Below, piece after piece: positions 10,849 through 32,045 of a stretch of 57,468 nucleotides of DNA. Position 1 is the stretch's first letter, and every line of letters begins with the position of its first letter. This stretch comes from Candidatus Edwardsbacteria bacterium (GTDB lineage: Bacteria > Edwardsbacteria > AC1 > EtOH8). The DNA lies in NCBI GenBank assembly GCA_025453955.1, contig JALOPJ010000003.1, positions 1 through 57,468 on the forward strand, written 5' to 3'. Position numbers and translations under genes: made by a program. The notes under the pieces were generated by a model. The model worked only from the letters and a program-made list of their open reading frames with translations. It ran no database searches and was not told the origin of the DNA.

Positions 10849-10924
10849 TGGAGCCGACGAAGGGATTTGAACCCCCGACCTGAGCTTTACGAAAGCCCTG
10901 CTCTACCAGCTGAGCTACGTCGGC
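10849..10924 (-). tRNA. tRNA-Thr(CGT)
   Basis: GCCGACGTAGCTCAGCTGGTAGAGCAGGGCTTTCGTAAAGCTCAGGTCGGGGGTTCAAATCCCTTCGTCGGCTCCA, canonical cloverleaf. Confidence 0.98.
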
Positions 10925-10928
10925 TTGA
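10884..10928. repeat. att-like direct repeat copy 1 (tRNA-Thr 5' half plus 4 nt)
   Basis: 45 bp identical to 24507-24551. Confidence 0.95.
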
Positions 10929-11014
10929 TGATAGAATCCAAAGGGTTAGATCCAGGACGCCCGTTTGATAGGTCTCAATGAGTGTCCAGAATGTGGCCAT
11001 CGTACGAACACAGC

Positions 11015-11043
11015 ATTTTACCATTTTTACACGCGATTGTCAA
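11015..11043 (-). promoter_or_regulatory. Element-borne sigma70 promoter for tRNA-Thr (and probably glmM-glmS)
   Basis: TTGACA-N17-TAAAAT; homologous copy at 24638-24666. Confidence 0.8.
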
Positions 11044-11099
11044 ACCCGTTTCAAGTATATTATCCACTGCAACAACGTGCCCGCGGCACCAACGACAAT

Positions 11100-11130
11100 A
11101 AAGCCCGCGAGCGGTAAAGCTCGGGGGCTT
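11100..11130 (-). terminator. Terminator-like hairpin insulating the tRNA promoter from cargo 1
   Basis: AAGCCCGCGAGC..GCTCGGGGGCTT; homologous hairpin at 24720-24752. Confidence 0.6.
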
Positions 11131-11296
11131 GTGAGGACCGGGTGGTGTGTTGATGGGGGTTCTAGTAATGGGCGGGGCTCGATATCCTTCACCCCCTCCC
11201 GATAGCGGCAATGATGGCCTTGAGTAAAATCCTGGTTTCCTGAGTAATGGTAATAGTGTTTTCTGCCCGCCGATAGGCGATCGGTTACAAAAACAA

Positions 11297-12040
11297 CTAT
11301 ATACCGAAAATCCCCATTAGAAAAAGCATGCTGACAACGCCGGCGATGATACCCAATGGAGTGAAGTGCTCATGGCCATGTTTATGGGCGAATGGCACCA
11401 ACTCGTCAAGCGTGATGAAGATCATCACTCCTCCGGCAAATGACAACGCGGTCGGCACGATCCCCTGGAACGGCCGCAGCAACAGAACGGCCAGGGTCGC
11501 GCCCACCGGCTCGGCCAAGCCAGATAGAAACGCCAATGCAACCGCCTTCCTCTTGGAAGCTCCTCCCATGAACACCGGAACTGCCACCGCTATCCCCTCG
11601 GGGAAATTATGGGCGGCCACCGCCAATGCCACGAACACGCCGAGCGCCGGCGTGTGCAGATAACCAGCGCCGACGGCGATCCCCTCCGGGATGTTGTGCA
11701 GGGTGATGCCGGCCGCGATCAGGAGTCCCGTATTCACCATGCTGGAGCGTTTGCGGCCATTTTCCCTGACCGCGAAGCGGATGTGGGGTATCAGAATGTC
11801 CAACGCGAACATCAACAGGGCCCCGGCCGTAAACCCGATTGTGGCGACCATGAACCCCGAATGCTCCTGGGATTCGAATACCAGCCCGAACGCGAGGGCG
11901 ATCATGACCCCCGCGGTGAATCCCATCAGGAAACCGAACAGGTGTTCCCCCGGTTTGCGGATGATGGCTATCAGGCCGCCCAGGCCGGTCGCCAAGCCTG
12001 CGAGCAAACTGATGAAGATGATGTTAAGGAAGTCGGGCAT
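11297..12040 (-). CDS. ZIP (ZupT-like) divalent metal transporter
   Basis: LHNIPEG and AHNFPEG motifs, GLAEP, multiple TM segments. Confidence 0.93.
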   Translation of the reverse strand: MPDFLNIIFISLLAGLATGLGGLIAIIRKPGEHLFGFLMGFTAGVMIALAFGLVFESQEHSGFMVATIGFTAGALLMFALDILIPHIRFAVRENGRKRSSMVNTGLLIAAGITLHNIPEGIAVGAGYLHTPALGVFVALAVAAHNFPEGIAVAVPVFMGGASKRKAVALAFLSGLAEPVGATLAVLLLRPFQGIVPTALSFAGGVMIFITLDELVPFAHKHGHEHFTPLGIIAGVVSMLFLMGIFGI

Positions 12041-12204
12041 TATCACGCTGTCGTTCGTTCATACGTAGATTACACTGAATCGGAAAGGAATGCAAGCGAT
12101 TTCCGATCCGCACGATGGTGTTCATGGTTCGGCGATGAGAAAACGGGCCGTTCATCGGCCCGTCAGTTTCGTCCTCAGGGTGAACACCCTCATGATCAGG
12201 CGGC

Positions 12205-12930
12205 TTACTTCTTCCCACCCTTCCTGACCGCTTCCGTCACTTTCTCCAGCGGCAGCTTCTTGGTGCAGAAGAACCAGTCGTAGCACTTCATGTCCTCCTT
12301 GCCCTCCATCCGCTGCTTGGCGACGCCGCAGGAACCGGCCGTCGGCACGATGACATCATCCCCCGGCTGCCAGTCGGCGGGCATGGCCACCGAATAAGCA
12401 TCGGCGGTCTGCAATGCCACAACCACCCGGTACAGTTCCGCGAAGTTCCGCCCCAGGCTCAGGGGATAATAGACGATGGCGCGGATGATCCCCTTGGGGT
12501 CGATGAAGAACACCGCCCGCACCGCCTTGGTGCTGCTCTCGCCGGGCTGGATCATCCCGTACTTCCTGGCGACCTCCATGGTGATGTCCTCGATCAGGGG
12601 GAAGGTGACCTCGACGTTCTTCATCCCCTTGTACTCGATCTTCTCCTTGATGGTCCGCAGCCAGGCGATGTGGCTGTACAGACCGTCGATCGACAGACCG
12701 ACGACCTTGCAGTTGATCTCGGCGAACTTCGGCTCCATGGTGGCGAAGGTCATGAACTCCGAGGTGCAGACCGGGGTGAAGTCGGCCGGGTGCGAGAACA
12801 GGATCACCCAGCTGCCGGCGTACTGGTCCGGGAAGCTGATCTCGCCCTGGGTGGTCACCGCCTTGAACGACGGGGCCTTGTCGCCGATGCGGGGCATGGG
12901 GATGGCCTGGTTCTGGGTCGCCTGTTCCAT
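12205..12930 (-). CDS. Peroxiredoxin (Prx6-type)
   Basis: FSHPADFTPVCTSE; AGGAGG RBS. Confidence 0.95.
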   Translation of the reverse strand: MEQATQNQAIPMPRIGDKAPSFKAVTTQGEISFPDQYAGSWVILFSHPADFTPVCTSEFMTFATMEPKFAEINCKVVGLSIDGLYSHIAWLRTIKEKIEYKGMKNVEVTFPLIEDITMEVARKYGMIQPGESSTKAVRAVFFIDPKGIIRAIVYYPLSLGRNFAELYRVVVALQTADAYSVAMPADWQPGDDVIVPTAGSCGVAKQRMEGKEDMKCYDWFFCTKKLPLEKVTEAVRKGGKK

Positions 12931-12992
12931 GGTCGGTCCTCCTTGTTGAATATTAAGCTCGATTGTCATGGGGGATGCGATCTACCATCGTT

Positions 12993-13538
12993 TCATATAA
13001 GCATCATGGCCGCAGCGATCACCGTGGTCCACAGGCCGTTCTTGTTGCCCTCGGCCGACTGGACGCAGTTGGTGGTGCGGAAGATGTGGCCGGACGCCTT
13101 GTACACCTGCTTGCGCTCGTCCCAGGCCAAGCTGGGGTCCAGCGGGATGCCCAGGGTCGTCGCCAGCATCGTCGCCGCCAGGTCCTCGGCGTACTCGCCG
13201 GACATCTCCCCCTTCTCGCCGAACGCATGGTGCTCGGAGAGGTAGCCGTAGTGATGCTTGTCCACCGGGATGGCCAGGCCGATGGCCGAGGAAATCAGCC
13301 GATTGGGTTCGTTCGTCGCATTGGTGGCCATCACGCAGTAGACGATCTGCCCCGGCTTGATCTGCTTGAGGCCGTCGCCGCGGGGGATGATCCGGCAGTT
13401 GGGCGGAAAGATGCTGGAAACGTACACCAGGTTGCACATCTGGATGCCGGCGTTGCGCAGCGCCGCCTCGAAGCTGGACAGCTTCTCCCGGTGGACGCCC
13501 ACGCCCTTGACGAAGAAGATCTTCTGCGGGACCATCAT
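12993..13538 (-). CDS. Pyruvoyl-dependent arginine decarboxylase
   Basis: [21 protein letters not shown] with Ser-Ser self-cleavage site. Confidence 0.9.
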
Positions 13539-13549
13539 CGTGCTTCCTT

Positions 13550-14374
13550 CTATGAAAAGTGGAACGAATCTCCCGACGTGCCGGGACGGACCCGGTCCCC
13601 GAACGCGCTGGTCAACGCATCGATCGCGTCCGTACCGGAGCAGTGGCACGGGACCACCATCGAGGGCCGGAACGCCTGCAGCGCCTCCACCGTCATCCTC
13701 AGCCGCCTATGATCCGCATTGCCGAGGTGAAACCCACCGATGACGGCATGCAGCTTCTCTGCGTGGGCTTCCCGTAGTGCGTTCTCGATTGTATTGATCA
13801 ATCCGGCATGGCTGCAGCCGGTAAGGACGACCAACCCATGACCGGTCTCCAGCCACATGGCCATGTCGTCCTCGATTGGGTCCGGAACCGTGCCCTCGGG
13901 ATCGAGGAAGAACGGGCCGCCCGTATCCTCGTAAGCGGTCCCCCTGGGTATGGGACCCGTCAAGCCGACGCCTGAGCAGACCGTTATCGCTTTCACCACC
14001 CACCGTTTTCGCTCAACCGGCAAGGCATCCAGAGTGTCGCGACATGGGCCCGGCATGCCGACCACCGTGCCCCCCCTGCTGCCGATACTGTACCGCTTCC
14101 GCGTCACTGCTGGATGGCAGTAGACGACGGACCCGGGGGCCAGCGACAGGGTACTATCCAGTCCGCCGGTATGATCGTAGTGCCCATGGCTGAGCACGAT
14201 GGCATCGGCTGTCGCCAGGTCAACGCCAGTTATCCGCGCGTTCTTTTCCACGACGCCGCCCTGGCCGGTGTCGAACAGAACATGGCGTTCCCCGGCATCG
14301 ACCCATAGGGAAAAACCGTGCTCCGCGGAAAGGCCAGGCCCTGGGCGGTCATCGACCAGAACGGTCATCCGCAT
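13550..14374 (-). CDS. MBL-fold metallo-hydrolase
   Basis: [36 protein letters not shown]. Confidence 0.92.
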
Positions 14375-14412
14375 GGTGCCATGTATCCTTGGCGATCAGC
14401 GGGCCCTGCTGC

Positions 14413-14751
14413 TTAGTGGTCGCAGGCGTTGCCGCCGGTCTGCAATGAACCGGCCAGGTAGTCTGTCACCAGCCGCTCCGGCGTCTCCGGTGGCGCGCCG
14501 ACTATCACCGTGATACCCTGCTCGGCGAACAACCCCTGGGCGCGGTGCCCCATGCCGCCGGCGATGATCATGGTCGCGCCCTTCCCCGCCAGCCAGCGCG
14601 GCAGCAGGCCCGGCTCATGCGGCGGTGCCTCGATGTCCTCCCGTTTGAGTATCGTCTTGTCTGCCGGGCTGGCATCGATCAGGGCAAAGCTCGCACAGTG
14701 CCCGAAATGCTGGGACAGTTTCCCGTCCGCCAGGGGGATCGCGATCTTCAT
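14413..14751 (-). CDS. NifB/NifX family Mo-Fe cluster-binding protein
   Basis: MKIAIP..HFGHC..IIAGGMG..CDH. Confidence 0.9.
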   Translation of the reverse strand: MKIAIPLADGKLSQHFGHCASFALIDASPADKTILKREDIEAPPHEPGLLPRWLAGKGATMIIAGGMGHRAQGLFAEQGITVIVGAPPETPERLVTDYLAGSLQTGGNACDH

Positions 14752-14767
14752 GCCGGTATGCTCCTTT

Positions 14768-15682
14768 TCATTTGATTGTTCCGCTTGCGACGGGCGCTTG
14801 CCGTTCGCAGGTGGCGATGAGCGGGTCAATGATGCCCCGCATGATCACGGCGGTCGCCGTGGACTGATGGTGCCGCATGAACGCGCGGCCGGCATCGCCG
14901 GTCTCGGCCACTGCCGGGTCGATGGGGATCGATCCGAGGAACGGTATCCCCATGTCGCGGGCGATCGCTTGCCCGCCGCCGGAACCGAGGATCGGTGTGA
15001 CCTCCCCGCATTTCGGGCAGGCGAACCCGCCCATGTTTTCCACGATGCCCAGCACCGGGACCCCGATCAGCCGACAGAAGGTGATGGATTTCCGGACATC
15101 CACCGTGGCCACCTTCTGGGGTGTGGTGACGATCACCGCGCCGTCCGGCTGCGCCAGCTGGCAGACCGAGAGCGGTTCGTCCCCGGTGCCAGGCGGAGAA
15201 TCGATGATCAGGTAATCCAGCTCACCCCAGGCGACATCCTGCAGGAATTGCTTGATCACCGTGGTCTTCATCGGGCCCCGCCAGATCACGGCGTTGTCCT
15301 GGTTCTCCAGGAAGAAGCCGATCGACACGACCTTGATCCCGTCAATCTCGACCGGTCTCATCTCCCCGTCGGGGCCGGCAACCATCCGCCCCTCCAGTCC
15401 CAGCATGGTGGGGATGCTCGGGCCGTGGATGTCGATGTCCAGCAATCCCACGCGTTTCCCCGCCGCCGCCAGCGCCGCGGCCAGGTTGACGGCCACGGTG
15501 CTCTTGCCCACCCCTCCCTTGCCCGACAGCACGACCACCGTGTGCTGGATGCAGCACAGCCGGGCCTGCAGTTTCTGACGGTCCTTGAAATCCTCGTCGC
15601 TCTCACCCTGCTTGCGACGGGCAGCAGCGCAGGTGCCGTTCCCGCAGGTGCCACAGGTTTTTGGCGCATCACTGGAGCTCAT
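14768..15682 (-). CDS. Mrp/NBP35 Fe-S cluster carrier ATPase
   Basis: SGKGGVGKST, DIDIHGPS, WRGP, DSPPGTGD, ENM..CPKC; N-terminal Cys cluster. Confidence 0.95.
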   Translation of the reverse strand: MSSSDAPKTCGTCGNGTCAAARRKQGESDEDFKDRQKLQARLCCIQHTVVVLSGKGGVGKSTVAVNLAAALAAAGKRVGLLDIDIHGPSIPTMLGLEGRMVAGPDGEMRPVEIDGIKVVSIGFFLENQDNAVIWRGPMKTTVIKQFLQDVAWGELDYLIIDSPPGTGDEPLSVCQLAQPDGAVIVTTPQKVATVDVRKSITFCRLIGVPVLGIVENMGGFACPKCGEVTPILGSGGGQAIARDMGIPFLGSIPIDPAVAETGDAGRAFMRHHQSTATAVIMRGIIDPLIATCERQAPVASGTIK

Positions 15683-16074
15683 GAATGGCCTCTCTTCCGC
15701 TGCGAATGGGACCGGCATGCCGCCTTGAGGGTATTGGATGCCAACAGCGCGCAATGCTCGAGTTCCGGGGGCAACCCGCCGAGCGCCTGCAGGATGTCCT
15801 GTTGTCCCACGACCGCGGCATCTGCGAGCGGCTTGTCCTCTGCCAGCGTCGTCGCCATGCTGCCGCAGGCCAGGGAAGAACCGCAGCCGTCGGTGATGAA
15901 CGATATTCTCTGGATCCGCCCGTCCTTGACCGTCAGCCAGAATTCCATGGTGTCCCCGCACGGGCCGGTGATGCAGGCATGCCCGTCGCTGCCGCCATTG
16001 GGGCCATAATTGCGCGGAAACATCGCATGGTCCTTGGCCACGTCCGAAAAGACCTTGAAATCACCGCTGGTCAT
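15679..16074 (-). CDS. NifU/IscU-like Fe-S scaffold protein
   Basis: GPCGD, DGCG, HCA conserved Cys; ATGA overlaps on both sides. Confidence 0.9.
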   Translation of the reverse strand: MTSGDFKVFSDVAKDHAMFPRNYGPNGGSDGHACITGPCGDTMEFWLTVKDGRIQRISFITDGCGSSLACGSMATTLAEDKPLADAAVVGQQDILQALGGLPPELEHCALLASNTLKAACRSHSQRKRGHS

Positions 16075-16982
16075 CGAGCCCTCTCCTCTCTGATCCCGAT
16101 GGCAGCCCATACGTTCCGGATGTCCTCTGCGCTGGGCGCGGCGGTCTCGATCACTGCCCGTCCTTCGATCTGCGCGGCGGTCACCGCGTGGTCGTACCGT
16201 ATCCGACCCGCGACCGTGGCCCCGGCTTGCCGCGCCCTGCCCTCGATGCGTTCCGACATGCCGGGATTCAGGTCCCACTTGTTGACGCAAACCGCGGTTG
16301 GGATGCAGAAATGCCTCGTCAAAGCCAGCACCCGGTCCAGGTCGTGCTCGCCCGAGACGGTGGGTTCGGTCACCACCAGGGCCTGGGTTGCTCCGGTCAG
16401 CGAGGCGATCACCGGGCAGCCGATGCCCGGCGGGCCATCCGTAATGATGACGGTTTTCCCGGCCTCCTGGGCCAGTATCCGGGCACGGCCCCGGACCAGC
16501 GACACCAGTTTCCCGGAGTTCTCGGCGGCCACGCCCAGCCGGGCATGCACCATCGGCCCGCAGCGGGTGTCCGACACGTACCATTCCCCATTGACCGTGG
16601 GGGCGAAGTCGATGGCCTGCTCGGCACAAAATCGCACACAAACACCACAGCCCTCGCAGGCGATGGGATCGATGCGGAAGGTTTTCGCCACCCGGCCGTT
16701 GCCGCAGCCGTCGAAGGAGATGGCATCGTAGCGGCACAGCTCTTCGCATTTGCCGCAGGCGATGCAGTGTCCGGCCCGGATGCGCGCCTTGCCGCCGCCG
16801 ATGAACTGGTGTTTCTCGACGATGCCGGGTTGCAGCACCAAATGCAGGTCCGCGGCGTCGACATCGCAATCCGCGATGACCACGCTGCCCGCCAGCACCG
16901 CGAATGAGGCTGCCAGGCTGGTCTTCCCGGTCCCGCCCTTTCCGCTGATGATGACAAGTTCCGCTGTCCGCCCGTCGTTCAC
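16071..16982 (-). CDS. MinD/ParA-family ATPase with inserted 2x[4Fe-4S] domain
   Basis: SGKGGTGKT, DCDVDAADL, two ferredoxin motifs, ENSGKLV, DGPPGIGCP. Confidence 0.93.
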   Translation of the reverse strand: MNDGRTAELVIISGKGGTGKTSLAASFAVLAGSVVIADCDVDAADLHLVLQPGIVEKHQFIGGGKARIRAGHCIACGKCEELCRYDAISFDGCGNGRVAKTFRIDPIACEGCGVCVRFCAEQAIDFAPTVNGEWYVSDTRCGPMVHARLGVAAENSGKLVSLVRGRARILAQEAGKTVIITDGPPGIGCPVIASLTGATQALVVTEPTVSGEHDLDRVLALTRHFCIPTAVCVNKWDLNPGMSERIEGRARQAGATVAGRIRYDHAVTAAQIEGRAVIETAAPSAEDIRNVWAAIGIREERAR

Positions 16983-17650
16983 CGCGTTCCTCCCTGCTTC
17001 ATCAGCACCATCACATCGTGCATGTGCCCGCAGTTTCTGATTCCGGCACCAACACCCATGTCCCGCAGCATCGCCGCCGCCTGTTCGATGGTGACGCCAC
17101 TAACCGGATGTTGTCCACCACCGGCCCGGTGGACCGACTCGACCAGCTTGAACCCTTCGGCCGAGAATTCCGCCAGGATGTATACGCCTGACGGTTTCAG
17201 CACCCGGACGGCCTCCGACAGCACCGGGCGCGGATCCGGCAGGTGATGCAGCACGTCCATCATCGCCACGCATCCGAACATCCCGTCTGAAAACGGCAGG
17301 GACGCCGCGGTGCCATGGATGAACCTGATCGACCGCGACATGCCGGCCTCTGCTGCCAGCATCTCGGCCAGCTCGCGTTCCAGAAGATCGATGTCGACGG
17401 AAATCACTTCCACCCTACGTCTGGCGAGTGCGATGGCGGTCAGGCCGCGTCCGGTGCCGATATCCAAGACCGGGCCGGTCAGCGGACCAGCGGCTGCGGC
17501 GACGAAATCCGAGGCGGCGAACCGGTCGTGCCCGGCGCGGAGGTACTGTTCGGTCCGGGCGTCGAACGCTGCCCGGCGCTCCCTCAGACCGGACGATCCC
17601 GTGAGCGGAATAGTCCCTGTCAACGGAACCGGTGTTCGATCAACGAGCAT
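16979..17650 (-). CDS. Class I SAM-dependent methyltransferase (start uncertain)
   Basis: VLDIGTGRG, LPFSDG, LHH, RVLKPSG. Confidence 0.85.
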   Translation of the reverse strand: MLVDRTPVPLTGTIPLTGSSGLRERRAAFDARTEQYLRAGHDRFAASDFVAAAAGPLTGPVLDIGTGRGLTAIALARRRVEVISVDIDLLERELAEMLAAEAGMSRSIRFIHGTAASLPFSDGMFGCVAMMDVLHHLPDPRPVLSEAVRVLKPSGVYILAEFSAEGFKLVESVHRAGGGQHPVSGVTIEQAAAMLRDMGVGAGIRNCGHMHDVMVLMKQGGTR

Positions 17651-18821
17651 CGAACGCCTGCTGCAGGTCGGCGATCTGGTCCGCGACATCCTCGATCCCA
17701 ACCGAGAGACGGACCAGCCCGTCGCTGATTCCGATGGCCTCGCGTTCGGCCCGCGGAATCCCGGCATGGGTCATCGACGCCGGGTGCTCGATCAACGTCT
17801 CCACGCCGCCCAGCGAGACCGCCAGCGCGGCGAGATGCACCCGGTCCATCAACTTCCGGCCGGCATCCAGGCCCCCGCGCATCTCGAAACTGATCATCGA
17901 TCCGGGACCGCGCATCTGGCGTTTGGCCAATTCATACTGCGGATGGGACGGCAGGCCGATGTACCGGACCCAGGCGATCTCCGGCCGCTTCGTCAACCAG
18001 TCGGCGACTTCCTGTGCGTTCTGTTGGGCCTGCTCCACCCGCAGCGACAGGGTCTTGATGCCGCGGTGTACCAGGAATGCCTGGTGGGGGTCCATGTTGC
18101 AGCCCGTGGTCACCATGGCGTCCCGCAACCGGGCATACGTCTCCTTGCCCCCGGCGACCAGGATGCCGCCCACCAGATCGGCATGGCCGTTGACATACTT
18201 GGTGACGGAGTGCAGCACCACGTCCGCCCCGAGCAGCAACGGGTTCTGCAGGCAGGGGGACGCGAACGTGCTGTCCACCACCAGCACCGCGCCGTGCGAG
18301 TGGGCGATCTCGGCGGCAGCCTGGATGTCGGTGAGTTGCATCATGGGATTGGACGGGGTCTCGATGTAGACCATCTTGGTTTCCGGCCGCAGCGCCTTGA
18401 TGACGTTGGCGGTGTCCGAGGTGTCCACGTAGGTCGAGGCGACCCCGAAACGGGAGAAGTGCCGCTCCATCAGCAGCCGGGACGGCCCGTAGACCGAGGC
18501 GGTGCTGACCACATGGTCCCCCTGGCTCAGCAGGGCGAAATACGCCGTCATCACCGCGGCCATGCCGGAACTGGTCGCGACGCCGCCGACGCCGTGCTCG
18601 AGTTCGGCCACGCATTTTTCCAGCGCGTCGACGGTGGGGTTCCCGATCCTGGTGTAGATGTACCCCTCGGCCTTCTTGGCGAACCGGTCAGCGCCATTCT
18701 GCGCGTTCTCGAACGCGAACGTCGACGTCTGGTAGATCGGCGTCACGACGCTGCCGTAGGCGTCAGCCGCCATGCCGGCGTGCACCAGTTTCGTGTTCGT
18801 CCCCTTGTCGGCGGTATGCAT
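17640..18821 (-). CDS. PLP-dependent Cys/Met transsulfuration enzyme (cystathionine/methionine gamma-lyase family)
   Basis: PIYQTSTF, YTRIGNPT, SSGMAA, ETPSNP, HSVTKY, VSLGGVETL, RLSVGIE. Confidence 0.93.
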   Translation of the reverse strand: MHTADKGTNTKLVHAGMAADAYGSVVTPIYQTSTFAFENAQNGADRFAKKAEGYIYTRIGNPTVDALEKCVAELEHGVGGVATSSGMAAVMTAYFALLSQGDHVVSTASVYGPSRLLMERHFSRFGVASTYVDTSDTANVIKALRPETKMVYIETPSNPMMQLTDIQAAAEIAHSHGAVLVVDSTFASPCLQNPLLLGADVVLHSVTKYVNGHADLVGGILVAGGKETYARLRDAMVTTGCNMDPHQAFLVHRGIKTLSLRVEQAQQNAQEVADWLTKRPEIAWVRYIGLPSHPQYELAKRQMRGPGSMISFEMRGGLDAGRKLMDRVHLAALAVSLGGVETLIEHPASMTHAGIPRAEREAIGISDGLVRLSVGIEDVADQIADLQQAFDAR

Positions 18822-18886
18822 CACGTTCCCATCCTTCCTATGATTATTTGACTGTTTCGTTTGCGATAGATTCATGGACACATCGT

Positions 18887-23649: not shown

Positions 23650-23659
23650 CGCCGCGAGT

Positions 23660-24154: not shown

Positions 24155-24167
24155 ATAACCTCTTAAT

Positions 24168-24215: not shown

Positions 24216-24279
24216 GGGGATAATGAGTGTTTTTTAATGATGCTTTCGGAAAGCCCGCCAAGGACAAAATGGCGTAAAA

Positions 24280-24310
24280 ATACCCCTCAGCGAGCAAGCT
24301 GCGGGGGTAT
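24280..24310. terminator. Hairpin at the inner edge of the island 1 arm
   Basis: ATACCCCTCAGC..GCTGCGGGGGTAT, followed by T-run on minus strand. Confidence 0.55.
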
Positions 24311-24506
24311 GAACCATCTTGGGAGGATATCGATGGCTTCTAAACCATGAATAATTGATCAGCCATGTTTGGTGTCCAAAAAGTGTCCACTTGTAGGCCA
24401 AAATAGGTTTAAATCTACTTAAAGTATATGTTCAATAACAAAGCGTATCTTATGACATGCAGTTGTAATGCTGATTATTGCAAATACCTGTATTTTCGAT
24501 GGTTTT

Positions 24507-24551
24507 GCTTTACGAAAGCCCTGCTCTACCAGCTGAGCTACGTCGGCTTGA
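24507..24551. repeat. att-like direct repeat copy 2 (tRNA-Thr 5'-half fragment), junction of the two islands
   Basis: Identical to 10884-10928; GTGTCCA pairs on both sides (24372, 24383, 24605, 24616). Confidence 0.95.
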
Positions 24552-24637
24552 GTTTGGATCCGAATGGTTTACACACCGGACACTGCATTCCGTAGATCTC
24601 CATGGTGTCCAAAATGTGTCCATCCACCTAACACATT

Positions 24638-24666
24638 ATTTTACCATTTTTTAGTGCGCTTGTCAA
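24638..24666 (-). promoter_or_regulatory. Second element-borne tRNA promoter, now upstream of the truncated tRNA half
   Basis: TTGACA-N17-TAAAAT. Confidence 0.75.
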
Positions 24667-24719
24667 ACATGTTTCAGCTGCTCCCGAGTACCGATCATCT
24701 GCCCCTGCGCGCACGAATG

Positions 24720-24752
24720 AAAAAGCCCCCGAGCGGCGAGGCTCAAGGGCTT
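24720..24752 (-). terminator. Terminator after cargo 2
   Basis: AAGCCCCCGAGC..GCTCAAGGGCTT with T-run on minus strand. Confidence 0.6.
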
Positions 24753-24772
24753 GTGCGTTTTTTGACGGATTA

Positions 24773-25268
24773 CTACCGGTGGCAATCATGCCCGGAATGG
24801 CAGCCACCCATCATCCCGTGTCCGTACATCGGGCCGCACACGGTTTTCATCTTCTTCTGCTGCTCGGCGGTCAGTATCTTCCGGCAATCCAGCATGTGGC
24901 TCAGCCGGGCGTCCTCGATCTTCTGCCGCAGTACGCTGATGGCCTTCGCCTTGCCCTTGATCCCGGAATCCCCCGCGTTCGAGTCCATCAGATCCTGCAT
25001 CTCCATACATGCGATCTTGAGATCGGCTTCCATCTTGATCATCGCAGTTCGGTGCTTGCTGGCCAGGTCATCGATATTCTTGACCTGGTCCTCGCTCAAG
25101 CCAAGCTTCTTGGCCATTTCGGGGGATGTGCAGCAATTGGCCCGGCTGCGCCCCATCATCCCACGCCCCACTCCCGAGTGGTGCTGCCCGCCCATGCCCG
25201 GCATGTCATAATTCTGGGCATTCATCCCGCCCGGATGGCAATCACAGGATCGTGAATATTTTCTGCAT
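24773..25268 (-). pseudogene. Spy/CpxP-like periplasmic protein, frameshifted in its signal peptide
   Basis: AAGGAG + ATG at 25268 gives MQKIFTIL-stop; the body (LGLSEDQ...ILTAEQ) is in another frame; 496 nt is not a multiple of 3. Confidence 0.7.
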
Positions 25269-25296
25269 GGTCTTCTCCTTCCGTTGGTTATTTCTG

Positions 25297-25506
25297 TTAC
25301 TTGCCCAGGTGCGCGATCTTCTCCTTGACCGCCGTCAATTCCGCTTCCAGGTTGGCCTGATAGCCCTTCAGCATCTCGAGCTTCTCGGCCTTGGTCTTGA
25401 ACCGGCGCTGGAAACCCTGGCCCTGACCGCAACAGCCTGAGTCACCGTGCCCGCCGCAGCCGCAATCATTCCCGGAATCATGATGGTTACCGCATCCGCA
25501 ATCCAT
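25297..25506 (-). CDS. Small Cys/His-rich coiled-coil protein (DUF5320-like)
   Basis: MDCGCGNHH..CGC..CC..RRFKTKAEKLEML..LEAEL. Confidence 0.75.
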   Translation of the reverse strand: MDCGCGNHHDSGNDCGCGGHGDSGCCGQGQGFQRRFKTKAEKLEMLKGYQANLEAELTAVKEKIAHLGK

Positions 25507-25542
25507 GTGAACACCCCCTTTCATTCTATCTGTAGTTTGTCG

Positions 25543-26766
25543 TTATTGGCTCCGCAATGCCTCTATCGGGTCCAGTTTCGATGCCTGCCGGGCAGGATAC
25601 ACCCCGCCCACAAAACCAACCGCCATCGAGAACGCCAGCGTGATCAGCACCGACGGCACCGAGATGCTCGTCTGCCATGCGGTCACCGCGCCCAGGAACG
25701 CCGATCCCAGCATGCCGAACACCACACCGGCCAGTCCGCCGACCGCGCTTAAGACGACGGCCTCAGAAACGAACTGTGTCAGAATGTCCCGGCGTCCGGC
25801 CCCGACCGCCATCCGCAACCCGATCTCCCTGACCCGCTCCCGCACCGACATTAGCATGATGGCCAGGATGCCGATGCCGCCGATCGCCATGGATATTGCG
25901 GCGATGCCCGCGATCAGCAGCGTGAAGGTCTCCCCGGTCTCCTTCTGGGTCGCCATCACGTCGGCCTGGCTCTGGACCAGAAAATCGTCATCCTTGCCCC
26001 GGTCATCTAGACGGTGCCGTTCCCGCAGCAGAGCCCGCACCTGTTCCTCAGCCTGGGTCATCGCCGTTGCGTCCGCCGCTTGCAGGTATACCGTGCTGAG
26101 ATACGGGACGTTGAACACCCGGCGCAGTCCGGTCAGGATGGGAATCAGTATCAGGTCGTCCTGGTCCATGCCGCCGACATCTACCCCCTTGGGTTCCAGC
26201 AGCCCGATGACCACGAACGGCACCTTGCCGATCAGGATCGTCTGGTCCATCGGGTCGACATCGCCGAACAGATATTTCCTGACGGTCTGCCCGATCACCG
26301 CCGTCCGCCGCAAACCCGTGTTATCCTCGTCGCTGAAGAACGATCCGGCCGCCAATCGGTAGTTCCTGACTTGCTGGTATGCGGCAGAAGTGCCGATAAC
26401 GGTTGTGCTGTACCCGACAGTGGAAAACTTCACTTGGAGCTTCTTCGACTGGGCCGGGGCGGCGGCGATCACGGCCGGGCACTCTTCGGCGATGGCGCGG
26501 GCATCTCCGATGGTTAGGGTGGTCACGGTGCCGCGTACCTGCGACCGCCCCGACATCTTCCGGACCTGCCCGGCCGAAACGGTCAGGAGATTCTTCCCCA
26601 TGGAATCGATCTTCGCCATTACCTCCTGCTCAGCGCCCCTGCCAACTGCCACCATGACGATGACCGTTGTTACGCCGATGGCGATGCCCAGTAGCGCCAG
26701 ACCGGTCCGCAACCGGTGCAACAATAACTGGCGGCGTGTAAGCGCGATGCTGCGGGTCAGTTTCAC
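25543..26766 (-). CDS. MacB-family ABC transporter permease
   Basis: LALLGIAIGV, GGIGILAIM, SVRERVREIGLRMAVGA, PIEALR. Confidence 0.93.
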   Translation of the reverse strand: MKLTRSIALTRRQLLLHRLRTGLALLGIAIGVTTVIVMVAVGRGAEQEVMAKIDSMGKNLLTVSAGQVRKMSGRSQVRGTVTTLTIGDARAIAEECPAVIAAAPAQSKKLQVKFSTVGYSTTVIGTSAAYQQVRNYRLAAGSFFSDEDNTGLRRTAVIGQTVRKYLFGDVDPMDQTILIGKVPFVVIGLLEPKGVDVGGMDQDDLILIPILTGLRRVFNVPYLSTVYLQAADATAMTQAEEQVRALLRERHRLDDRGKDDDFLVQSQADVMATQKETGETFTLLIAGIAAISMAIGGIGILAIMLMSVRERVREIGLRMAVGAGRRDILTQFVSEAVVLSAVGGLAGVVFGMLGSAFLGAVTAWQTSISVPSVLITLAFSMAVGFVGGVYPARQASKLDPIEALRSQ

Positions 26767-26785
26767 GGCGCGTGGCGGTACAAAT

Positions 26786-28003
26786 TCACCCGCGTAAGGC
26801 CTCAACTGGTTGGACCCGGGCCGCGCGTTTGGCTGGCTGGTAACCCGCCACGATGCCCACCGCCCCGGAGAACACCAGGCCCATCAAGACGCTGGCCCAG
26901 GAGATCACCAGCGGCATCTTGCTGAGTTGCCGCATCAGGCCGATGCCCAGCGCTCCCAGCAGCAGCCCGAACACGCCGCCGATCAGAGTGATGACAACCG
27001 CTTCGGCCAGGAACTGTTGGCGAATGTCGCTGCTGCTGGCACCGACCGCCATCCGCAAGCCAATCTCCCGCCGCCGCTCGTTCACGGACAGCAGCATCAG
27101 GTTGGCGATGACGACACCCCCGGCAATCAGCGAGATGGCGGAAACGATGATCAAAAGCACATTGAAGGTACCGGCCACCTTTTTCGCCACCTTGACGATC
27201 TCGGTCGGCGTGATCAGGGAAAAGTCATCCGGCTGGCCGGTCGCGAGCTGATGGCGGCTGCGCAACACCGTCCTGACTTCCTCCGCTTTTTGCTCGATGG
27301 AACCCGACCCGCCGAACCGCACCCGTACCCCCGAGATATAGTCGACATTGTCGACCCGCTTCATGAAGGTGCTCAGCGGCACGAAAATCCGGTTGTCCAT
27401 GTCGCCGCCGCGCGGGCTGGTGCCCTTGGATTTCATCAGGCCCTTGACCTCGAAGGCCACGCTGCCGATCATGATCCGCTCGCCCACCGGGTCGGCCGTG
27501 GAATCGAACAGGGCCTTGTACACCGTGGTGCCCAGGACGCAGACCCGGTTGAGACCTTCCATGTCTTCGTCGGTGATGAAATCGCCTTCAGTCACGTCCC
27601 AGTCCCAGACTGGCACCCACGACGGCGTCACACCGAAGATGTTCGTGGTTGCCGTCCTGTCCAGATACTTGATCTCGACCCTGCCTTTTTGGCCCATCGG
27701 GGCCACGCCCACCACATCGGGTACCTCGTGCGCAATGGCATCGACATCATCGACGGTCAGGGTGTTTGTCGGTGTGCCGCCGCTGGGTTGTGTGACCTCG
27801 CCGCCGCCGGCATGGATCATGATCGCCGACACGCCGAAGACCTTGACCCGGTCCATCACCCGCTTCTGCGAACCCAAGCCGGCCGATACCACCATGGTCA
27901 ATGCGGCAATGCCGACGACGATGCCGATCATCATCAGGAACGAACGGAGGCGGTAACGCCGCAGGCATTTCAGGGCGGTGCTGATCGTCCTATTTGTTCT
28001 CAT
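26786..28003 (-). CDS. MacB-family ABC transporter permease
   Basis: RSFLMMIGIVVG, SVNERRREIGLRMAVGA, PVEALR. Confidence 0.93.
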   Translation of the reverse strand: MRTNRTISTALKCLRRYRLRSFLMMIGIVVGIAALTMVVSAGLGSQKRVMDRVKVFGVSAIMIHAGGGEVTQPSGGTPTNTLTVDDVDAIAHEVPDVVGVAPMGQKGRVEIKYLDRTATTNIFGVTPSWVPVWDWDVTEGDFITDEDMEGLNRVCVLGTTVYKALFDSTADPVGERIMIGSVAFEVKGLMKSKGTSPRGGDMDNRIFVPLSTFMKRVDNVDYISGVRVRFGGSGSIEQKAEEVRTVLRSRHQLATGQPDDFSLITPTEIVKVAKKVAGTFNVLLIIVSAISLIAGGVVIANLMLLSVNERRREIGLRMAVGASSSDIRQQFLAEAVVITLIGGVFGLLLGALGIGLMRQLSKMPLVISWASVLMGLVFSGAVGIVAGYQPAKRAARVQPVEALRG

Positions 28004-28730
28004 TGCGCACCTCCTGCTTGGGGATCTGGTCCAGGGCCAGCGCGGCATCCTTGGGGCTGGCATTGGCCTGGTCGCTGACGATGCTGCCATCGGTGATCTT
28101 GATGATCCGCTTGGCGTACTCGGCGATATCCGGCTCATGGGTCACCAGCACCACGGTCTTGCCCTGCTGGTTCAGCTGTTGGAACAGGGCGATGATCTCG
28201 TAGCTGGAACGGGTGTCCAGGTTGCCGGTCGGCTCGTCGGCAAAAATGATCTCCGGCTGGTTGACGATGGCACGGGCGATGGCCACCCGCTGCTGCTGGC
28301 CACCCGACAGTTCGCCGGGGTTGTGATGGATCCGGTCCTTGAGCCCGACCGATTCCAGCGCCTCGCGGGACAGCCGGGTGATGTCCGCCTTGTCGGAATA
28401 GATCAGCGGCAGCTCCACGTTCTCCAGGGCATTGGCCCGTGGCATCAGATTGAATGACTGGAACACGAACCCGATCTTCTGATTCCGGACCTTCGCCAGG
28501 GCCTGGTCGTCCATCTGGCTGACCTCCTGGCCGTCGAGCAGCAGCTGCCCGCCGCTGGGCTTGTCGAGGCAGCCCAGGATGTTCATCAAGGTACTCTTCC
28601 CGGAGCCGGACGCGCCCATGATGGCCACGAACTCGCCCTGCTGGATCTCCAGGTTGACCTCCCGCAGTGCCTGGACTGAAGCCCCGCTGCCCTTGTTGTA
28701 GGTCTTGGTAATCCCTTTGGCCTGAACCAT
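27990..28730 (-). CDS. ABC transporter ATP-binding protein (MacB/LolD type)
   Basis: [26 protein letters not shown]. Confidence 0.96.
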
Positions 28731-28757
28731 GCTGTGCTCCTGTATATTTGGTAGTTG

Positions 28758-29033
28758 TTATCCGTTTTTCTGCGGAATGCCAATTTCCTTCTTCATCTGC
28801 TCGTATACCTCTTTGTCGATCTCCCCCGCACAGTACCGCTTATTGAGTATCTCCAGCGGGCTGGCCTGGGTGCCATCCGTGTTGTAGAAAAGGTCAGACG
28901 GCTGCTTGGGGCTTTTCCTGAAGATCAAGGCACAGACGAGAGCAATAACGATGATGCTGCCGGTGATCGCGAACACCCACCACAGACCAGCCCCGCCTGC
29001 TGCAAAGTGCATGTGTCCCATCGTTCCCTCCAT
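28758..29033 (-). CDS. SHOCT-domain membrane protein
   Basis: One TM, then PLEILNKRYCAGEIDKEVYEQMK. Confidence 0.85.
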   Translation of the reverse strand: MEGTMGHMHFAAGGAGLWWVFAITGSIIVIALVCALIFRKSPKQPSDLFYNTDGTQASPLEILNKRYCAGEIDKEVYEQMKKEIGIPQKNG

Positions 29034-29048
29034 CAGTTGTTGTTGCGG

Positions 29049-30116
29049 TCAGATATCCTTGCCATTGGACCCGGACACGATGATAGTGTCCCCTTCCTTA
29101 AGGCCGCTCAGAATCTCGGTGTACGTAGCATCCTTCCATCCCGTTTTGACGGGTTTCGCCGTGCCAGTCCTGCCGTCCGGGACCAGCACGTACTTGCCGC
29201 CCTTGCCCCGCTTGATCGCCGTCGTCGGGACCGCCAAGACGTTCTTGTGCATGCCGAGCGACAGAGAGACGTTGGCCGTCATTTCCGGGCGCAAGGTCTT
29301 CCCTTGGAAATCCTCGATCCGGATGGTCACGATATAGTTGACCACGTTGTCCTGGATCACGGCGGCCGGGTAGATGGCGGTCACCGTGCCCTTGAAGTCG
29401 TTCTCCATGTAGGTGTCCACCGTGAACGACGCCGACTGCCCGACATTGATTTTCCCGATATCGGTCTCGTCGACGTAGGCGCGGACCTCGAGCTTTTTCA
29501 GGTTGATGATGGTGACGAACGTTGGGGCCGAGAAGCTGGCCGACACCACCTCGCCTTCCTGCGTCGACACCGACGCCACTACGCCGGATATGGGCGCGGT
29601 GATGCGGGCATAATCGAGCTGTATCCTCGATGATTCCAGGTTGGCCTGCGCTAGCTTCAGCTGGGCCTCGGCAGCCTTGATGTTCTTCTGGGAAAGGTCG
29701 TATTCCTGGCGGGATATCAGCGTCTGCTCGAACAGCGCCTTCTGCCGGGCGCTTTCCGACAGGGCGTACTCCTGCGCGGCCTGGGCGGTGATCAGCGCGG
29801 CCTCGCTCTGCAGCAGCTTGGCCTTCAGGTCCAGGGTGTCCAGCTGGGCGATCTGCTGACCGGCCTTCACGTAATCGCCGATGTTGGCGTACAGCTTAGT
29901 GACGATGCCGGATATCCGGGAACCGACCTTAACCTCGGCCCCGACCATCGGCTTGATGATACCGGTGGCCGTCACCGATGAGTTGATGTCCCGGCGCGCC
30001 ACGCTGACGGTCTGCAGGGCTGCGGATTCCTTCTTCCCACACCCAGCAAGCCCCGTGATGACCAACCCCGACATTAGAGACGTGAGGATAACCGTTCGGT
30101 AAAACTTGCCCCGCAT
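29049..30116 (-). CDS. MacA-like periplasmic adaptor (MFP), lipoprotein
   Basis: LAGC lipobox, VGSRISG, ITAPISGVV, VDETDIG, LRPEMTA. Confidence 0.93.
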   Translation of the reverse strand: MRGKFYRTVILTSLMSGLVITGLAGCGKKESAALQTVSVARRDINSSVTATGIIKPMVGAEVKVGSRISGIVTKLYANIGDYVKAGQQIAQLDTLDLKAKLLQSEAALITAQAAQEYALSESARQKALFEQTLISRQEYDLSQKNIKAAEAQLKLAQANLESSRIQLDYARITAPISGVVASVSTQEGEVVSASFSAPTFVTIINLKKLEVRAYVDETDIGKINVGQSASFTVDTYMENDFKGTVTAIYPAAVIQDNVVNYIVTIRIEDFQGKTLRPEMTANVSLSLGMHKNVLAVPTTAIKRGKGGKYVLVPDGRTGTAKPVKTGWKDATYTEILSGLKEGDTIIVSGSNGKDI

Positions 30117-30185
30117 ATCAAAGTCCCATCGAAATGTGTGAACAGCTAACATGATGAACGAAAGAAACGTTGAATCGAATGCAAC

Positions 30186-30734
30186 TTATCCCTTTTCCTT
30201 CTGGGGCGCACTGATGACGAACTGCTTGTCGCGCAGATACCATTCCATGATGAAACCGATGGCGATGAACACCGGCAGAGTGAACAGCGTCCGCAGCAAG
30301 GAGAACTTGAGACCCAGGAAACCGATCTCGAACGTCAGCATCGGGATCTTCATGGTGGAGAACGCGCCCAGATAGATGAAAATATTCCTGACGCCACAGC
30401 CTTTCTTCCAAAGCAGGTAGGCCACGGGGAAAGCCCCGTACAACGGCCCCGCCTGCAGCATAGCGAGCAGGATCACCCAGAACGTCCCGGTGAAACCCGA
30501 TCCGGGGCCGATATGCCGCTCGACCTTCTCCTTGGGCAGCCAGACGTCGATCAGCCCGATCAGGATGAACATCAGCGGCAGGAACGCGATCATTTCCGAG
30601 AAGAAGGCCCAGAAGTTCCTGCCCGCGCCCAAGCCGAAATCCCATGCGGCCAGGCGCGAGACCAACAGCAACGACCCGAACGCCAGGGCCAGTAAATACT
30701 CGCCCACTCCCAGCTTTTCGATGATCTTCCTCAC
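30186..30734 (-). CDS. Predicted permease (DUF318/ArsP-like half)
   Basis: Hydrophobic, QAGPLYGAFP, KIPMLTFE. Confidence 0.75.
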   Translation of the reverse strand: MRKIIEKLGVGEYLLALAFGSLLLVSRLAAWDFGLGAGRNFWAFFSEMIAFLPLMFILIGLIDVWLPKEKVERHIGPGSGFTGTFWVILLAMLQAGPLYGAFPVAYLLWKKGCGVRNIFIYLGAFSTMKIPMLTFEIGFLGLKFSLLRTLFTLPVFIAIGFIMEWYLRDKQFVISAPQKEKG

Positions 30735-31201
30735 ATGAACACCCGTATCAGCAGGCCGACGATCAGCGCGCCGATGAAGCTCAGCCCGTTGCGCAGCAGG
30801 GCAACCGGCCTGCCGAAAAACCGGCTCTCCAGCGGCAGAGTAACAATACCGACCATCATCAGGGTCGTGATGAAGACCGCCACCACGGCATACCCCGCGC
30901 CGGTCTTGAGTATCAACGCGCCCAGCGGGAAGGCGACGAACCCCGGGATCATCGCGATGGATCCGATCACGGCCGCCACCGCATATCCGGCCACCCCGGA
31001 ATTTGCCCCCAGCCAACGGACGATGGTCTGCTGCGGCACGAGGGTCAGAGCGAGACTGACCAAGATCAACATATTCAGCAACGCCGGCAAGATGCCGACG
31101 AACATCTTGAGGCCGCGACGTAAGCCTGCCGTCGTCTTGCGGCGGTCAGCAACGAACGAAACGACCACCACTACAGCAGTGATACAGATCAGTATCAGCA
31201 T
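30731..31201 (-). CDS. Predicted permease (DUF318/ArsP-like half)
   Basis: Hydrophobic, IPGFVAFPL, MVGIVTLPLE. Confidence 0.75.
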   Translation of the reverse strand: MLILICITAVVVVVSFVADRRKTTAGLRRGLKMFVGILPALLNMLILVSLALTLVPQQTIVRWLGANSGVAGYAVAAVIGSIAMIPGFVAFPLGALILKTGAGYAVVAVFITTLMMVGIVTLPLESRFFGRPVALLRNGLSFIGALIVGLLIRVFM

Positions 31202-31253
31202 CGGTAGGTGCGCATGCGCTGACAGTCGGGACAGCCAGTTCTGATAATGCCTG

Positions 31254-31682
31254 TCACTTTTCCCTGACCGCAGCCTTGCGCGAGGGTGAACTGGTCACCT
31301 CCCGGTAGGCCGCCAGCAACCGCCCTAGCCTCTCCCGGCGCTCCTCGATGCTCTGGGCCCAGGCCGACAAGAGCTTCCGGCCCTTCGGGGTGATCTGGTA
31401 GGAGCGGCGGGCCGGGCCGGAGGATTTGGTGGCCCATTGCGATTTGACCGTGCCGTTGAGCTCCATTTGCCGCAGCAGCCGGTAGATGGCGGCTTGGTCC
31501 GGGACGCCATCCTGTAGCTCTTGTTTCTTCATGTCGTCCCGCAGGTGGTAGCCGTACGACTGGCCCTTCGCCAGCAGGATCAATATGGCAGGCATCAGGA
31601 ACTTGGAGGTGCGCTGGGTATGGCAGCCGCACTCCTTTAACATATCCTGTCCACAGGAACACGCCTTCTTCCCATCGCACAT
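31254..31682 (-). CDS. PadR-family regulator with Cys-rich N-terminus
   Basis: SYGYHL, IYRLLRQME, GPARRSYQITPKG; AGAGAGG RBS before ATG at 31682. Confidence 0.9.
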   Translation of the reverse strand: MCDGKKACSCGQDMLKECGCHTQRTSKFLMPAILILLAKGQSYGYHLRDDMKKQELQDGVPDQAAIYRLLRQMELNGTVKSQWATKSSGPARRSYQITPKGRKLLSAWAQSIEERRERLGRLLAAYREVTSSPSRKAAVREK

Positions 31683-31694
31683 GATAAACCTCTC

Positions 31695-31743
31695 TATGTT
31701 CATTAGACATATAGATGATACAGGAGGTTTAACCGAAAGTCAA
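31695..31743 (-). promoter_or_regulatory. sigma70 promoter and PadR-type operator
   Basis: TTGACT-N17-TATCAT (31715-31743); TATGT-N7-ACATA palindrome (31695-31711). Confidence 0.7.
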
Positions 31744-31786
31744 GAGTGTTTCATAATTTCTTGCCGGGGCCGGGGCGAGAACAAAG

Positions 31787-31825
31787 AAAAGGCCGCTGCA
31801 TCATCCAATAGATGCAACGGCCTTC
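31787..31825 (-). terminator. Hairpin/terminator at the inner edge of the island 2 arm
   Basis: GGCCGCTGCATC..GATGCAACGGCC with T-rich tail on minus strand. Confidence 0.6.
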
Positions 31826-32007
31826 AATGCCCGGACCACGGCTGCGATCTCCCTTTACACCCCACCGCGAAAGATGTAAAAAAGACCACTTAGTGGACGA
31901 AAAAGGCGTGAGCGTGCTTAAACAATAACATCAACAACGAACCGTAACTTGCACATTGGATAGCTAATGGAATATTGCGCAGTAGGCTTCGAATCAATGG
32001 TTTCTTC

Positions 32008-32045
32008 TTACGAGAACTTCGCGCTGACCGTTGCGCTACGCTGGC
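32008..32045 (-). pseudogene. Diverged tRNA-Thr(CGT) 5' half (third att-like site)
   Basis: GCCAGCG TA GCGC AACGGTCA GCGC G AAGTT CTCGTAA: same 38-nt layout as the intact tRNA 5' half, 25/38 identical. Confidence 0.8.

Follow-up and report, generated by a model that had tools for sequence, protein, structure and literature searches.

Integrase-less operon cassettes stacked at the 5' side of a tRNA-Thr(CGT) gene in Candidatus Edwardsbacteria: probable derivatives of islands targeting the tRNA 5' half

The only tRNA-Thr(CGT) gene found in a Candidatus Edwardsbacteria genome is preceded by two tandem units, E1 (positions 10929-24551, 13.6 kb) and E2 (24552-32045, 7.5 kb), each of which carries an operon between a pair of end sequences (arms) and is bounded by copies of the tRNA 5' half. 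Neither encodes an integrase. We interpret them as derivatives, resembling cis-mobilisable elements (CIMEs), of islands that use the 5' half of the tRNA as their target; they would have entered at the anticodon arm, E2 first and E1 thereafter, and E1 would still be competent for an incoming Thr-type integrase. We put the probability of this reading at roughly 0.65. The units lie in the window, by which we mean the whole stretch of 57,468 nt that was analysed, namely contig C13 of the metagenome-assembled genome G000 (2.52 Mb in 211 contigs, 88% complete). The comparison set consists of 16 other species-level genomes of the family (G001-G016), with G001 belonging to the same genus as G000.

The intact tRNA gene (10849-10924; called by ARAGORN and by the Rfam tRNA model with 65.7 bits) is the only one of its kind among the 52 tRNAs found in the assembly and, like every feature of the locus to which coordinates are given below, lies on the minus strand. 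On its 3' side the host flank begins with glmM (9451-10794), a gene of the phosphoglucosamine mutase family with four PGM_PMM domains in Pfam, 55 nt from the tRNA 3' end to the glmM start and orthologous to the genes of relatives (58-70% amino acid identity); on the far side of the islands the host flank resumes with lgt (32083-32856; Pfam LGT). Since the tRNA is on the minus strand and the islands occupy higher coordinates, they precede the gene, and it is its 5' half that has been duplicated. The arrangement is the mirror image of the usual one, in the rarer orientation. An earlier note on this DNA, made from the sequence, had reported three 5' halves, the last of them diverged, and this count stands with one correction. 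A repeat finder pairs 10884-10958 with 24507-24581, of which direct reading finds the first 45 nt to be identical: core copy 1 (10884-10928), made of tRNA positions 1-41 and 4 nt upstream, is where E1 meets the tRNA 3' part, and core copy 2 (24507-24551), an orphan half that neither ARAGORN nor Rfam calls as a tRNA, forms the junction of E1 with E2. Core copy 3 (about 32004-32045) adjoins the lgt stop codon and reads as a well-formed Thr(CGT) 5' half with the acceptor sequence GCCAGCG, a compensated D stem (GCGC/GCGC) and the anticodon loop CTCGTAA; it is a different variant of the tRNA half and not a decayed version of the 45-bp core.

The homology of the arms at both ends of the units, likewise claimed beforehand, exceeds every control that was applied. 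The tRNA-proximal (left) arms, 10929-11140 in E1 and 24552-24765 in E2, align with a local score of 61 against a shuffle mean of 9.4 (standard deviation 1.4, maximum 16), and the distal (right) arms, compared over 24300-24506 and 31800-32003, reach 24 against a mean of 9.2 (1.2, maximum 15). None of 300 dinucleotide shuffles attained the observed score for either pair, and scores of 7-10 were obtained in the same alignment control for four further AT-rich spacers within the window. Within the genome, a BLAST search with the left arm returns the partner arm only (79% identity over 170 nt, E = 3e-32). Both left arms contain a GGACAC-type motif, at 10982-10998 in E1 and 24605-24621 in E2. The E1 right arm (24370-24506), which aligns with the right arms of G003 and G008, has an intact GGACAC-N5-GGACAC at 24372-24388, and the motif of the E2 right arm (31870-32003) is degenerate. 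Taken alone, the arm motif is not enriched in the window (four matches with up to two mismatches, 7.4 expected), and whatever weight it has therefore derives from its position and its conservation across elements rather than from counts. The tRNA is the sole Rfam match across 10500-32500, and the candidate explanation that the arms are a known non-coding RNA was rejected as Rfam has no match there.

Between these arms both units follow the same order in the direction of the genes: right arm, hairpin, near-consensus sigma-70 promoter, regulator, cargo, terminator, tRNA-directed promoter, direct GGACAC-type repeat pair, a spacer of 57 nt and the tRNA 5' half. Promoter, terminator and folding scans agree on this common layout, which the earlier note had described. 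In E1, a terminator-like hairpin (24255-24315; -23.5 kcal/mol, z -3.0, followed by a U tract) separates the right arm from the promoter of the Fur operon (24187-24215; TTGACA-17-TATAAT, 12/12 matches), and the cargo terminator hairpin lies in the left arm at about 11095-11133 (-21.6 kcal/mol, z -2.7). In E2, the corresponding features are an insulating terminator hairpin (31780-31830; -28.3 kcal/mol, z -6.1), the promoter of the PadR operon (31715-31743; 10/12 matches) and a left-arm terminator at 24752-24723. Altogether four minus-strand terminator-like hairpins occur in the two units, with z-scores from -2.7 to -6.1. The predicted tRNA-directed promoters (11043-11015 and 24666-24638) are both TTGACA-17-TAAAAT with 11/12 matches and an extended -10 TG. 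The layout had also been said to include an operator at the operon promoter; the promoters are found by the scan, and over the E1 Fur promoter there is an AT-rich tract that by eye resembles the Fur-box consensus, a putative Fur box.

The units carry no recognisable means of moving themselves, in line with what had been seen in the sequence. The 30 open reading frames (ORFs) scanned with Pfam across 11297-31703, four of which have no Pfam family, contain no integrase, transposase, relaxase, transfer or phage family. Phage structural, replication and packaging families are absent from the same ORFs as judged by Pfam (PHROGs was not searched), so that E1 and E2 do not qualify as prophages or satellites. 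A six-frame search of G000 for PF00589 gave three matches, all on contigs other than that of the window, and tblastn with the G008 integrase found no match on the window's contig. Their composition is distinct from the surroundings: the G+C content is 61.5% in E1 and 59.6% in E2, compared with 66.6-67.6% in the flanks and 67.8% in the genome, and at third codon positions it is 0.73-0.90 in island genes versus 0.93-0.99 in flanking genes.

The state of the site varies among the relatives. In eight of the 16 (G005, G006, G009, G010, G011, G014, G015 and G016) lgt stands directly upstream of tRNA-Thr(CGT), with a spacer of 146 nt in G006; this is the empty site that the earlier note had proposed to look for. 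An integrase or integrase pseudogene reads into the tRNA in three, one genome (G001) has only an E2-like unit, one (G003) has a ClC channel gene, one (G012) has another upstream context without arms, and in two (G004 and G013) contig ends leave the state of the site unassigned. In G001, the order from the lgt side is orphan 5' half, E2-like element, E2-type left arm, tRNA and glmM, with E1 absent; the left arm at the intact tRNA is 84% identical to that of E2, and the orphan half is 88% identical to the core. Since E2 stands directly at the tRNA in G001, E1 is a discrete unit of variable presence bounded by cores, and since E1 lies on the tRNA side of E2 and is missing from this same-genus genome, it is the later arrival, as had been supposed. 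In combination, the cores, the arms and the site states of relatives support the proposal of discrete, integrase-less units flanked by attachment (att) sites and piled up at one tRNA. Tandem duplication of the region upstream of the tRNA was considered as a candidate and rejected, given the empty sites in relatives and the arms common to integrase-bearing elements.

The tandem could in principle be a product of assembly, with the 45-bp repeat mis-resolved and the truth a G001-like chromosome in which E2 adjoins the tRNA, whereas E1 would exist as a circle or belong to another strain. Sequencing data were consulted in the form of Logan contigs of five runs, four of which were compared with the window. 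The G001 scaffold has a gap in the same tRNA, which would suit an artefact, yet contig depth in the probable source run is similar for the two units (E1 10.8-15.4, E2 9.7-12.0), and the 45-bp repeat is shorter than usual reads and than the largest assembly k-mers. Even under a mis-resolved repeat, E1 would be an excised element of the same kind, and we consider the artefact highly improbable. Joints in the Logan contigs, with sides of 20-34 nt at 90% likeness, look like cross-matches of paralogous ATP-binding cassette (ABC) and MinD genes, and runs X3 and X4 contain E2-like pieces with 3-9% differences. The gap in the G001 scaffold (L037, G001:C68, about 11873-11950) consists of two Ns in the anticodon region, where a break in assembly induced by the repeat is to be expected.

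The autonomous form with a tyrosine integrase, for which a search had been advised, occurs at the same site with common arms in G008 and G002. In G008 (100% complete, nine contigs), the contig with lgt continues into an orphan 5' half of the host type, which ends exactly at tRNA position 41, then into a right arm that contains the motif, and finally into AT-rich DNA, of which at least 17 kb precede the end of the contig; a second contig opens with a 372-aa tyrosine recombinase that runs into the intact tRNA-Thr(CGT), followed by glmM. The element thus spans two contigs, with the break between the part of at least 17 kb and the integrase. The former part encodes Cro/CI-type and other helix-turn-helix proteins, ArdC, RadC, two very large secreted proteins and a radical S-adenosylmethionine (SAM) enzyme. 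The arrangement in G002 is the same, with an integrase that is 63-64% identical; both genes are intact, and the third, in G007, is a pseudogene with two stop codons. An alignment of six left arms (E1, E2, G001, G008, G002 and G007) places the motif 55-57 nt ahead of the tRNA start in every one of them. In G008, G002 and G007 it falls inside the C-terminal coding tail of the integrase; in E1, E2 and G001, what precedes it is not integrase coding sequence but a promoter and a terminator. Five distal arms can be aligned as well, and in these the motif is found about 130 nt away from the core: E1 and G008 have it intact, G003 retains it in part, and in E2 and G001 it is degenerate.

The promoter-terminator segment that takes the place of the integrase is homologous in E1, E2, G001 and a metagenome contig, L118, which argues for one lineage and not two independent decays. 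The left arm of L118 is 79% identical to that of E2, and its neighbouring genes code for a radical SAM enzyme and an AMP-binding enzyme. In G003, lgt is followed by a decayed orphan half, a homologous right arm and then the ClC channel gene before the contig ends. Other cargoes at the arm sequences, which had also been suggested as a search target, therefore exist: the left arm is associated with three different cargoes (E1, E2 and L118) and the homologous right arm with a fourth (G003). L118 is the one contig with arm homology among three in the metagenome collection that show the cassette promoter pattern. Among species-representative genomes, the pattern of a tRNA start plus the arm motif gave 12 loci, including G002 and G007, an Auribacterota contig with a related integrase fragment reading into tRNA-Phe and a Terriglobia contig with integrase fragments near tRNA-Thr. 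The ten loci without arm homology to the window were taken as chance matches, and eight of the 12 have no integrase match.

The anatomy of the units, the homology of their arms and the empty or differently occupied sites of relatives are observations; the mechanism that we propose on their basis is as follows. A tyrosine integrase would recombine element-borne tRNA-Thr(CGT) positions 1-41 with the chromosomal gene, the crossover presumably falling in or beside the anticodon arm. The incoming element would land upstream of the gene, displace the resident 5' half together with its promoter, and bring its own. Any newcomer would come to lie between its predecessor and the tRNA 3' part, and the newest unit would consequently be nearest to the tRNA. 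In the cassettes, the body of the integrase gene appears to have been replaced by the cargo terminator and a strong sigma-70 promoter, whose predicted activity would keep the tRNA expressed. The paired GGACAC-type repeats, spaced as in the integrase-bearing relatives, are presumed arm-type integrase sites. The second hairpin may shield the cargo operon from transcription entering via the orphan half, and movement would depend on an integrase supplied in trans.

A test of how such units spread is offered by E2, which G000 and G001 share. Seven E2 ORFs are 83.9-95.5% identical in nucleotide sequence between the two genomes, compared with 71.3-80.9% for five flanking host genes, and the G001 contig shows no match to the other three of the ten E2 ORFs of G000. 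The identity of the host flank next to the element does not rise. E2 was hence exchanged after the divergence of the hosts and not via recombination in the flanks, which constitutes a signal of horizontal transfer. Transformation followed by RecA-dependent recombination, with the arms and the tRNA as anchors, could likewise swap cargo, and unequal recombination could then create the tandem. Arms that are 75-84% conserved across elements with different cargo, a cargo made of family-typical genes and the lack of an integrase are all compatible with such an exchange. But sequences of 75-84% identity over about 200 bp are a poor substrate for homologous recombination, no tracts of high identity extend into the host flanks between G000 and G001, and the boundaries of the units fall exactly at the tRNA-derived core, as they do in G008, where the orphan ends at position 41. 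We therefore regard homologous exchange as an improbable origin of the units.

Several findings weigh against the derivation from 5'-half-targeting islands with an E1 that can still move. A Thr-type integrase was found neither in G000 (88% complete) nor in G001 (94% complete); the only related integrase of G000, on contig C169, sits at tRNA-Ser(TGA) and is 53% identical over 159 aa, and no excisionase candidate was identified. The Logan contigs, built with k = 31, end inside the repeat (at 10899 and 24536), which fits both resolutions of the assembly. The distal arm motif and the orphan core (copy 3) of E2 are degenerate, for which reason E2 alone looks immobile now. Copy 3 would form one acceptor mispair and one wobble pair with the present 3' half, and the tRNA-Thr(CGT) of the genus of G000 is unlike the sequence common to 11 family relatives in both of its halves; a pure swap of the 5' half (positions 1-41) is insufficient to account for either, and it is possible that the 3' half has co-evolved or that an older replacement took place from the 3' side. 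The cargo of E1, finally, is typical of the family: five concatenated proteins are 70-73% identical at the amino acid level to those of four relatives, which are 70-77% identical among themselves, a divergence of the size seen between genera. No recent donor of E1 was identified in comparison with these four relatives carrying the cluster, and E1 may have resided in the lineage for long.

Much of this would also be expected if E1 and E2 were dead, fixed relics that are now ordinary operons, with arms and orphan halves as decaying scars. The missing cognate integrase in G000 and G001 and the degenerate distal arm and orphan core of E2 speak for such relics, and the cargo of E1, family-typical and present as the genome's only copy of its cluster, may be under selection to stay. 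In contrast, the 45-bp repeat of E1 is perfect and both of its arm motifs are intact, set beside an orphan in G001 that is only 88% identical and a copy 3 that has diverged much further; E2 is far more alike between G000 and G001 than the host genes are, and at least three different cargoes adjoin the left arm of the integrase-less backbone. Fixed relics appear to us unlikely on balance. The perfect repeat and the intact arms are at the same time the only indicators of the age of E1.

At the other extreme, E1 and E2 could belong to a persistent lineage of minimal tRNA-anchored cassettes that shuttle whole regulated operons, family-typical clusters among them, within an uncultured family, moved by the integrases of related autonomous islands, and thereby form a tRNA-based analogue of integron cassettes. 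We offer this reading tentatively, as a possibility that goes well beyond the derivation from islands. Its minimal unit would comprise two arms, two insulating terminators, a regulator-first operon, and the unit's own tRNA promoter and 5' half. Equally tentative, and proposed jointly with it, is the corollary that successive arrivals rewire an essential single-copy tRNA in its promoter and 5' half, force the 3' half to co-evolve and might in this way explain the odd tRNA-Thr(CGT) of the genus. The likeness to integron cassettes is a functional one only: modules that lack a recombinase and depend on promoter context gather at one site by means of a recombinase encoded elsewhere. Unlike integron cassettes, E1 and E2 have no attC, IntI or platform and consist of whole regulated operons of 7-14 kb with promoters of their own.

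The novelty of the arrangement had been overstated in the earlier note, because islands with a 5' fragment, tandem arrays and CIMEs have all been published. Of the 3919 islands in Table 1 of the Islander survey, 159 have a 5' fragment and 2083 an anticodon-centred site, and the table counts 125 tandems of at least two; the rule of the survey is that a 5' tRNA gene fragment must lie upstream of, and in the same orientation as, the intact tRNA gene (PMC4383910). E1 and E2 conform to this rule: a cognate 5' fragment precedes the intact tRNA gene and is oriented like it. They differ in that Islander requires an integrase in each island and they have none; the elements of G008 and G002 would qualify. 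CIMEs and tandem accretion at tRNA genes are described for ICESt1/ICESt3 and the streptococcal tRNA-Lys elements, with a three-step model (PMC5704250). Likeness to CIMEs extends to the retention of attL and attR as target-derived direct repeats (a perfect 45 bp around E1, copy 2 and the diverged copy 3 around E2), to the absence of integrase, relaxase and transfer families from the ORFs, and to arms related to those of the integrase-encoding elements of G008, G002 and G007 at the same tRNA; judged by sequence, these are three of the characters by which CIMEs would be recognised. Unlike in CIMEs, it is the tRNA 5' half that is duplicated here, and the place of the integrase is taken by a terminator together with a promoter on which transcription of the tRNA must depend. 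Neither unit of the tandem has an integrase, and mobilisation of E1 and E2 would have to take place in trans, or in cis after the arrival of a helper; the backbone recurs with other cargo, so that it looks propagating and not decayed in place. Another parallel is found in the ssrA-targeted islands of Dehalococcoides, in which operon modules are mobilised site-specifically at a single-copy small-RNA gene (PMC3146451), the difference being that their target is the tmRNA (transfer-messenger RNA) and ours a tRNA. What seems particular to the present case is the exchange of the integrase for a dedicated tRNA promoter, the insulation of the cargo at both ends and the recurrence of the backbone with several cargoes; a narrow literature search found no description that combines a tRNA promoter replacing the integrase, terminator insulation at two ends and a backbone with several cargoes.

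The family provides a natural series from an intact integrase to an integrase pseudogene to an integrase replaced by a promoter, that is from island to non-autonomous module, and it does so in the rarer orientation, in which the element supplies the tRNA 5' half and its transcription. It makes testable whether the arm sites suffice for mobilisation by a related integrase, and how a cell copes when the promoter and one half of a single-copy tRNA are replaced repeatedly. There is a consequence for annotation, too, as these 21 kb would escape any island finder that depends on the presence of an integrase.

The cargo of E1 (11297-24154; Pfam, with NCBIfam matches to Fur and TsaA/TrmO) begins with a Fur-family regulator (23660-24154), followed by DUF5320, CGGC, two NifX-like proteins, a TrmO-like protein, two MinD-type ATPases with ferredoxin inserts and Mrp/NUBPL. 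Further genes encode TauE, DUF364, a zinc ribbon protein, a Cys/Met pyridoxal phosphate enzyme, a SAM methyltransferase and a metallo-beta-lactamase fold protein, and the remainder a pyruvoyl arginine decarboxylase, a peroxiredoxin and a ZIP transporter. From its domains, this is most likely an operon for metal and iron-sulfur homeostasis. The cargo is not foreign to the lineage, because the Fur-headed cluster is typical of the family at other loci: it occurs in the same gene order in G007, G008, G012 and G014, with 60-89% amino acid identity for most proteins. In G000 the cluster is present in E1 only, and G001 has only the peroxiredoxin-decarboxylase part. Trees were built of GlmM from 15 genomes and of five concatenated E1 proteins from five. 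In the latter, G000 pairs with the genus of G007 at support 88/93, a moderate value for five taxa; in the GlmM tree it falls in a clade with G003, G002 and the genus of G008, apart from G007. G012 and G014, which belong to one genus, are not sisters in the E1 cluster tree. The Fur-headed cluster (DUF5320, CGGC, NifX-like, MinD/ferredoxin ATPases and Mrp; L136-L139) is in its own right a conserved gene set of the family.

E2 has its cargo at 24773-31703 (Pfam). Its first gene codes for a PadR regulator (31254-31703), and later genes for ArsP-like permease ORFs, a HlyD adaptor, a SHOCT protein, a MacB-type ABC ATPase with two FtsX permeases, an ORF of 75 aa and an LTXXQ/Spy-like protein. At 30186-31201 two overlapping ORFs are both of the ArsP-type permease family, being either a frameshifted gene or two adjacent genes. 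This segment has relatives of 74-81% nucleotide identity elsewhere in genomes of the family and is absent from the E2 copy of G001.

Integrases related to that of G008 were examined at 30 loci in 41 genomes. At 14 of these a same-strand tRNA (Thr, Ser, Met, Arg, Gly, Lys or His) follows within about 150 nt downstream of the match, at four an opposite-strand tRNA lies within about 125 nt, and 12 have none that close; the 14 loci with a same-strand downstream tRNA indicate that integration at the 5' side is a habit of this integrase clade. NCBIfam places the G008-type integrase in no curated family, all matches being under the cut-offs. With the integrase protein as query, the viral collection yielded only two distant relatives (27-31% identity), and the best match among phage records was 29%. 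The two intact Thr-type integrases (L068, G008:C7 156-1274; L070, G002:C161) stop at tRNA positions 43-45, past the 41-nt core. Five other integrases of the clade stop 3-13 nt before the tRNA, and four frames are open through the whole of it. Frames that abut or overlap the tRNA in this manner leave no room for a separate tRNA promoter. One idea suggested by these sequences is that RNase P processing of the co-transcript would remove the integrase stop codon in the integrated state. G000 itself also harbours a second element with an integrase of the clade (L002, G000:C169:1-620); its integrase gene is truncated at the beginning of the contig and runs into tRNA-Ser(TGA).

Two minor observations concern the tRNA locus. 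In G011 (L100, G011:C60:15000-34600, 9074-19601), 7-9 kb and a second glmM 5'-end fragment lie between the tRNA 3' side and glmM, and the other side of the tRNA locus may be another insertion site. Searching the viral collection with a 35-nt stretch of the tRNA gave four large contigs with tRNA arrays, none with an integrase match. In these contigs (L120-L123 of IMG/VR; 19-175 kb, arrays of 10-31 tRNAs), the tRNA-Thr(CGT) is identical to that of the window over 48 nt (positions 2-49), and the tRNA of the window, which matches the viral contigs over this length, differs from that of its own family relatives.

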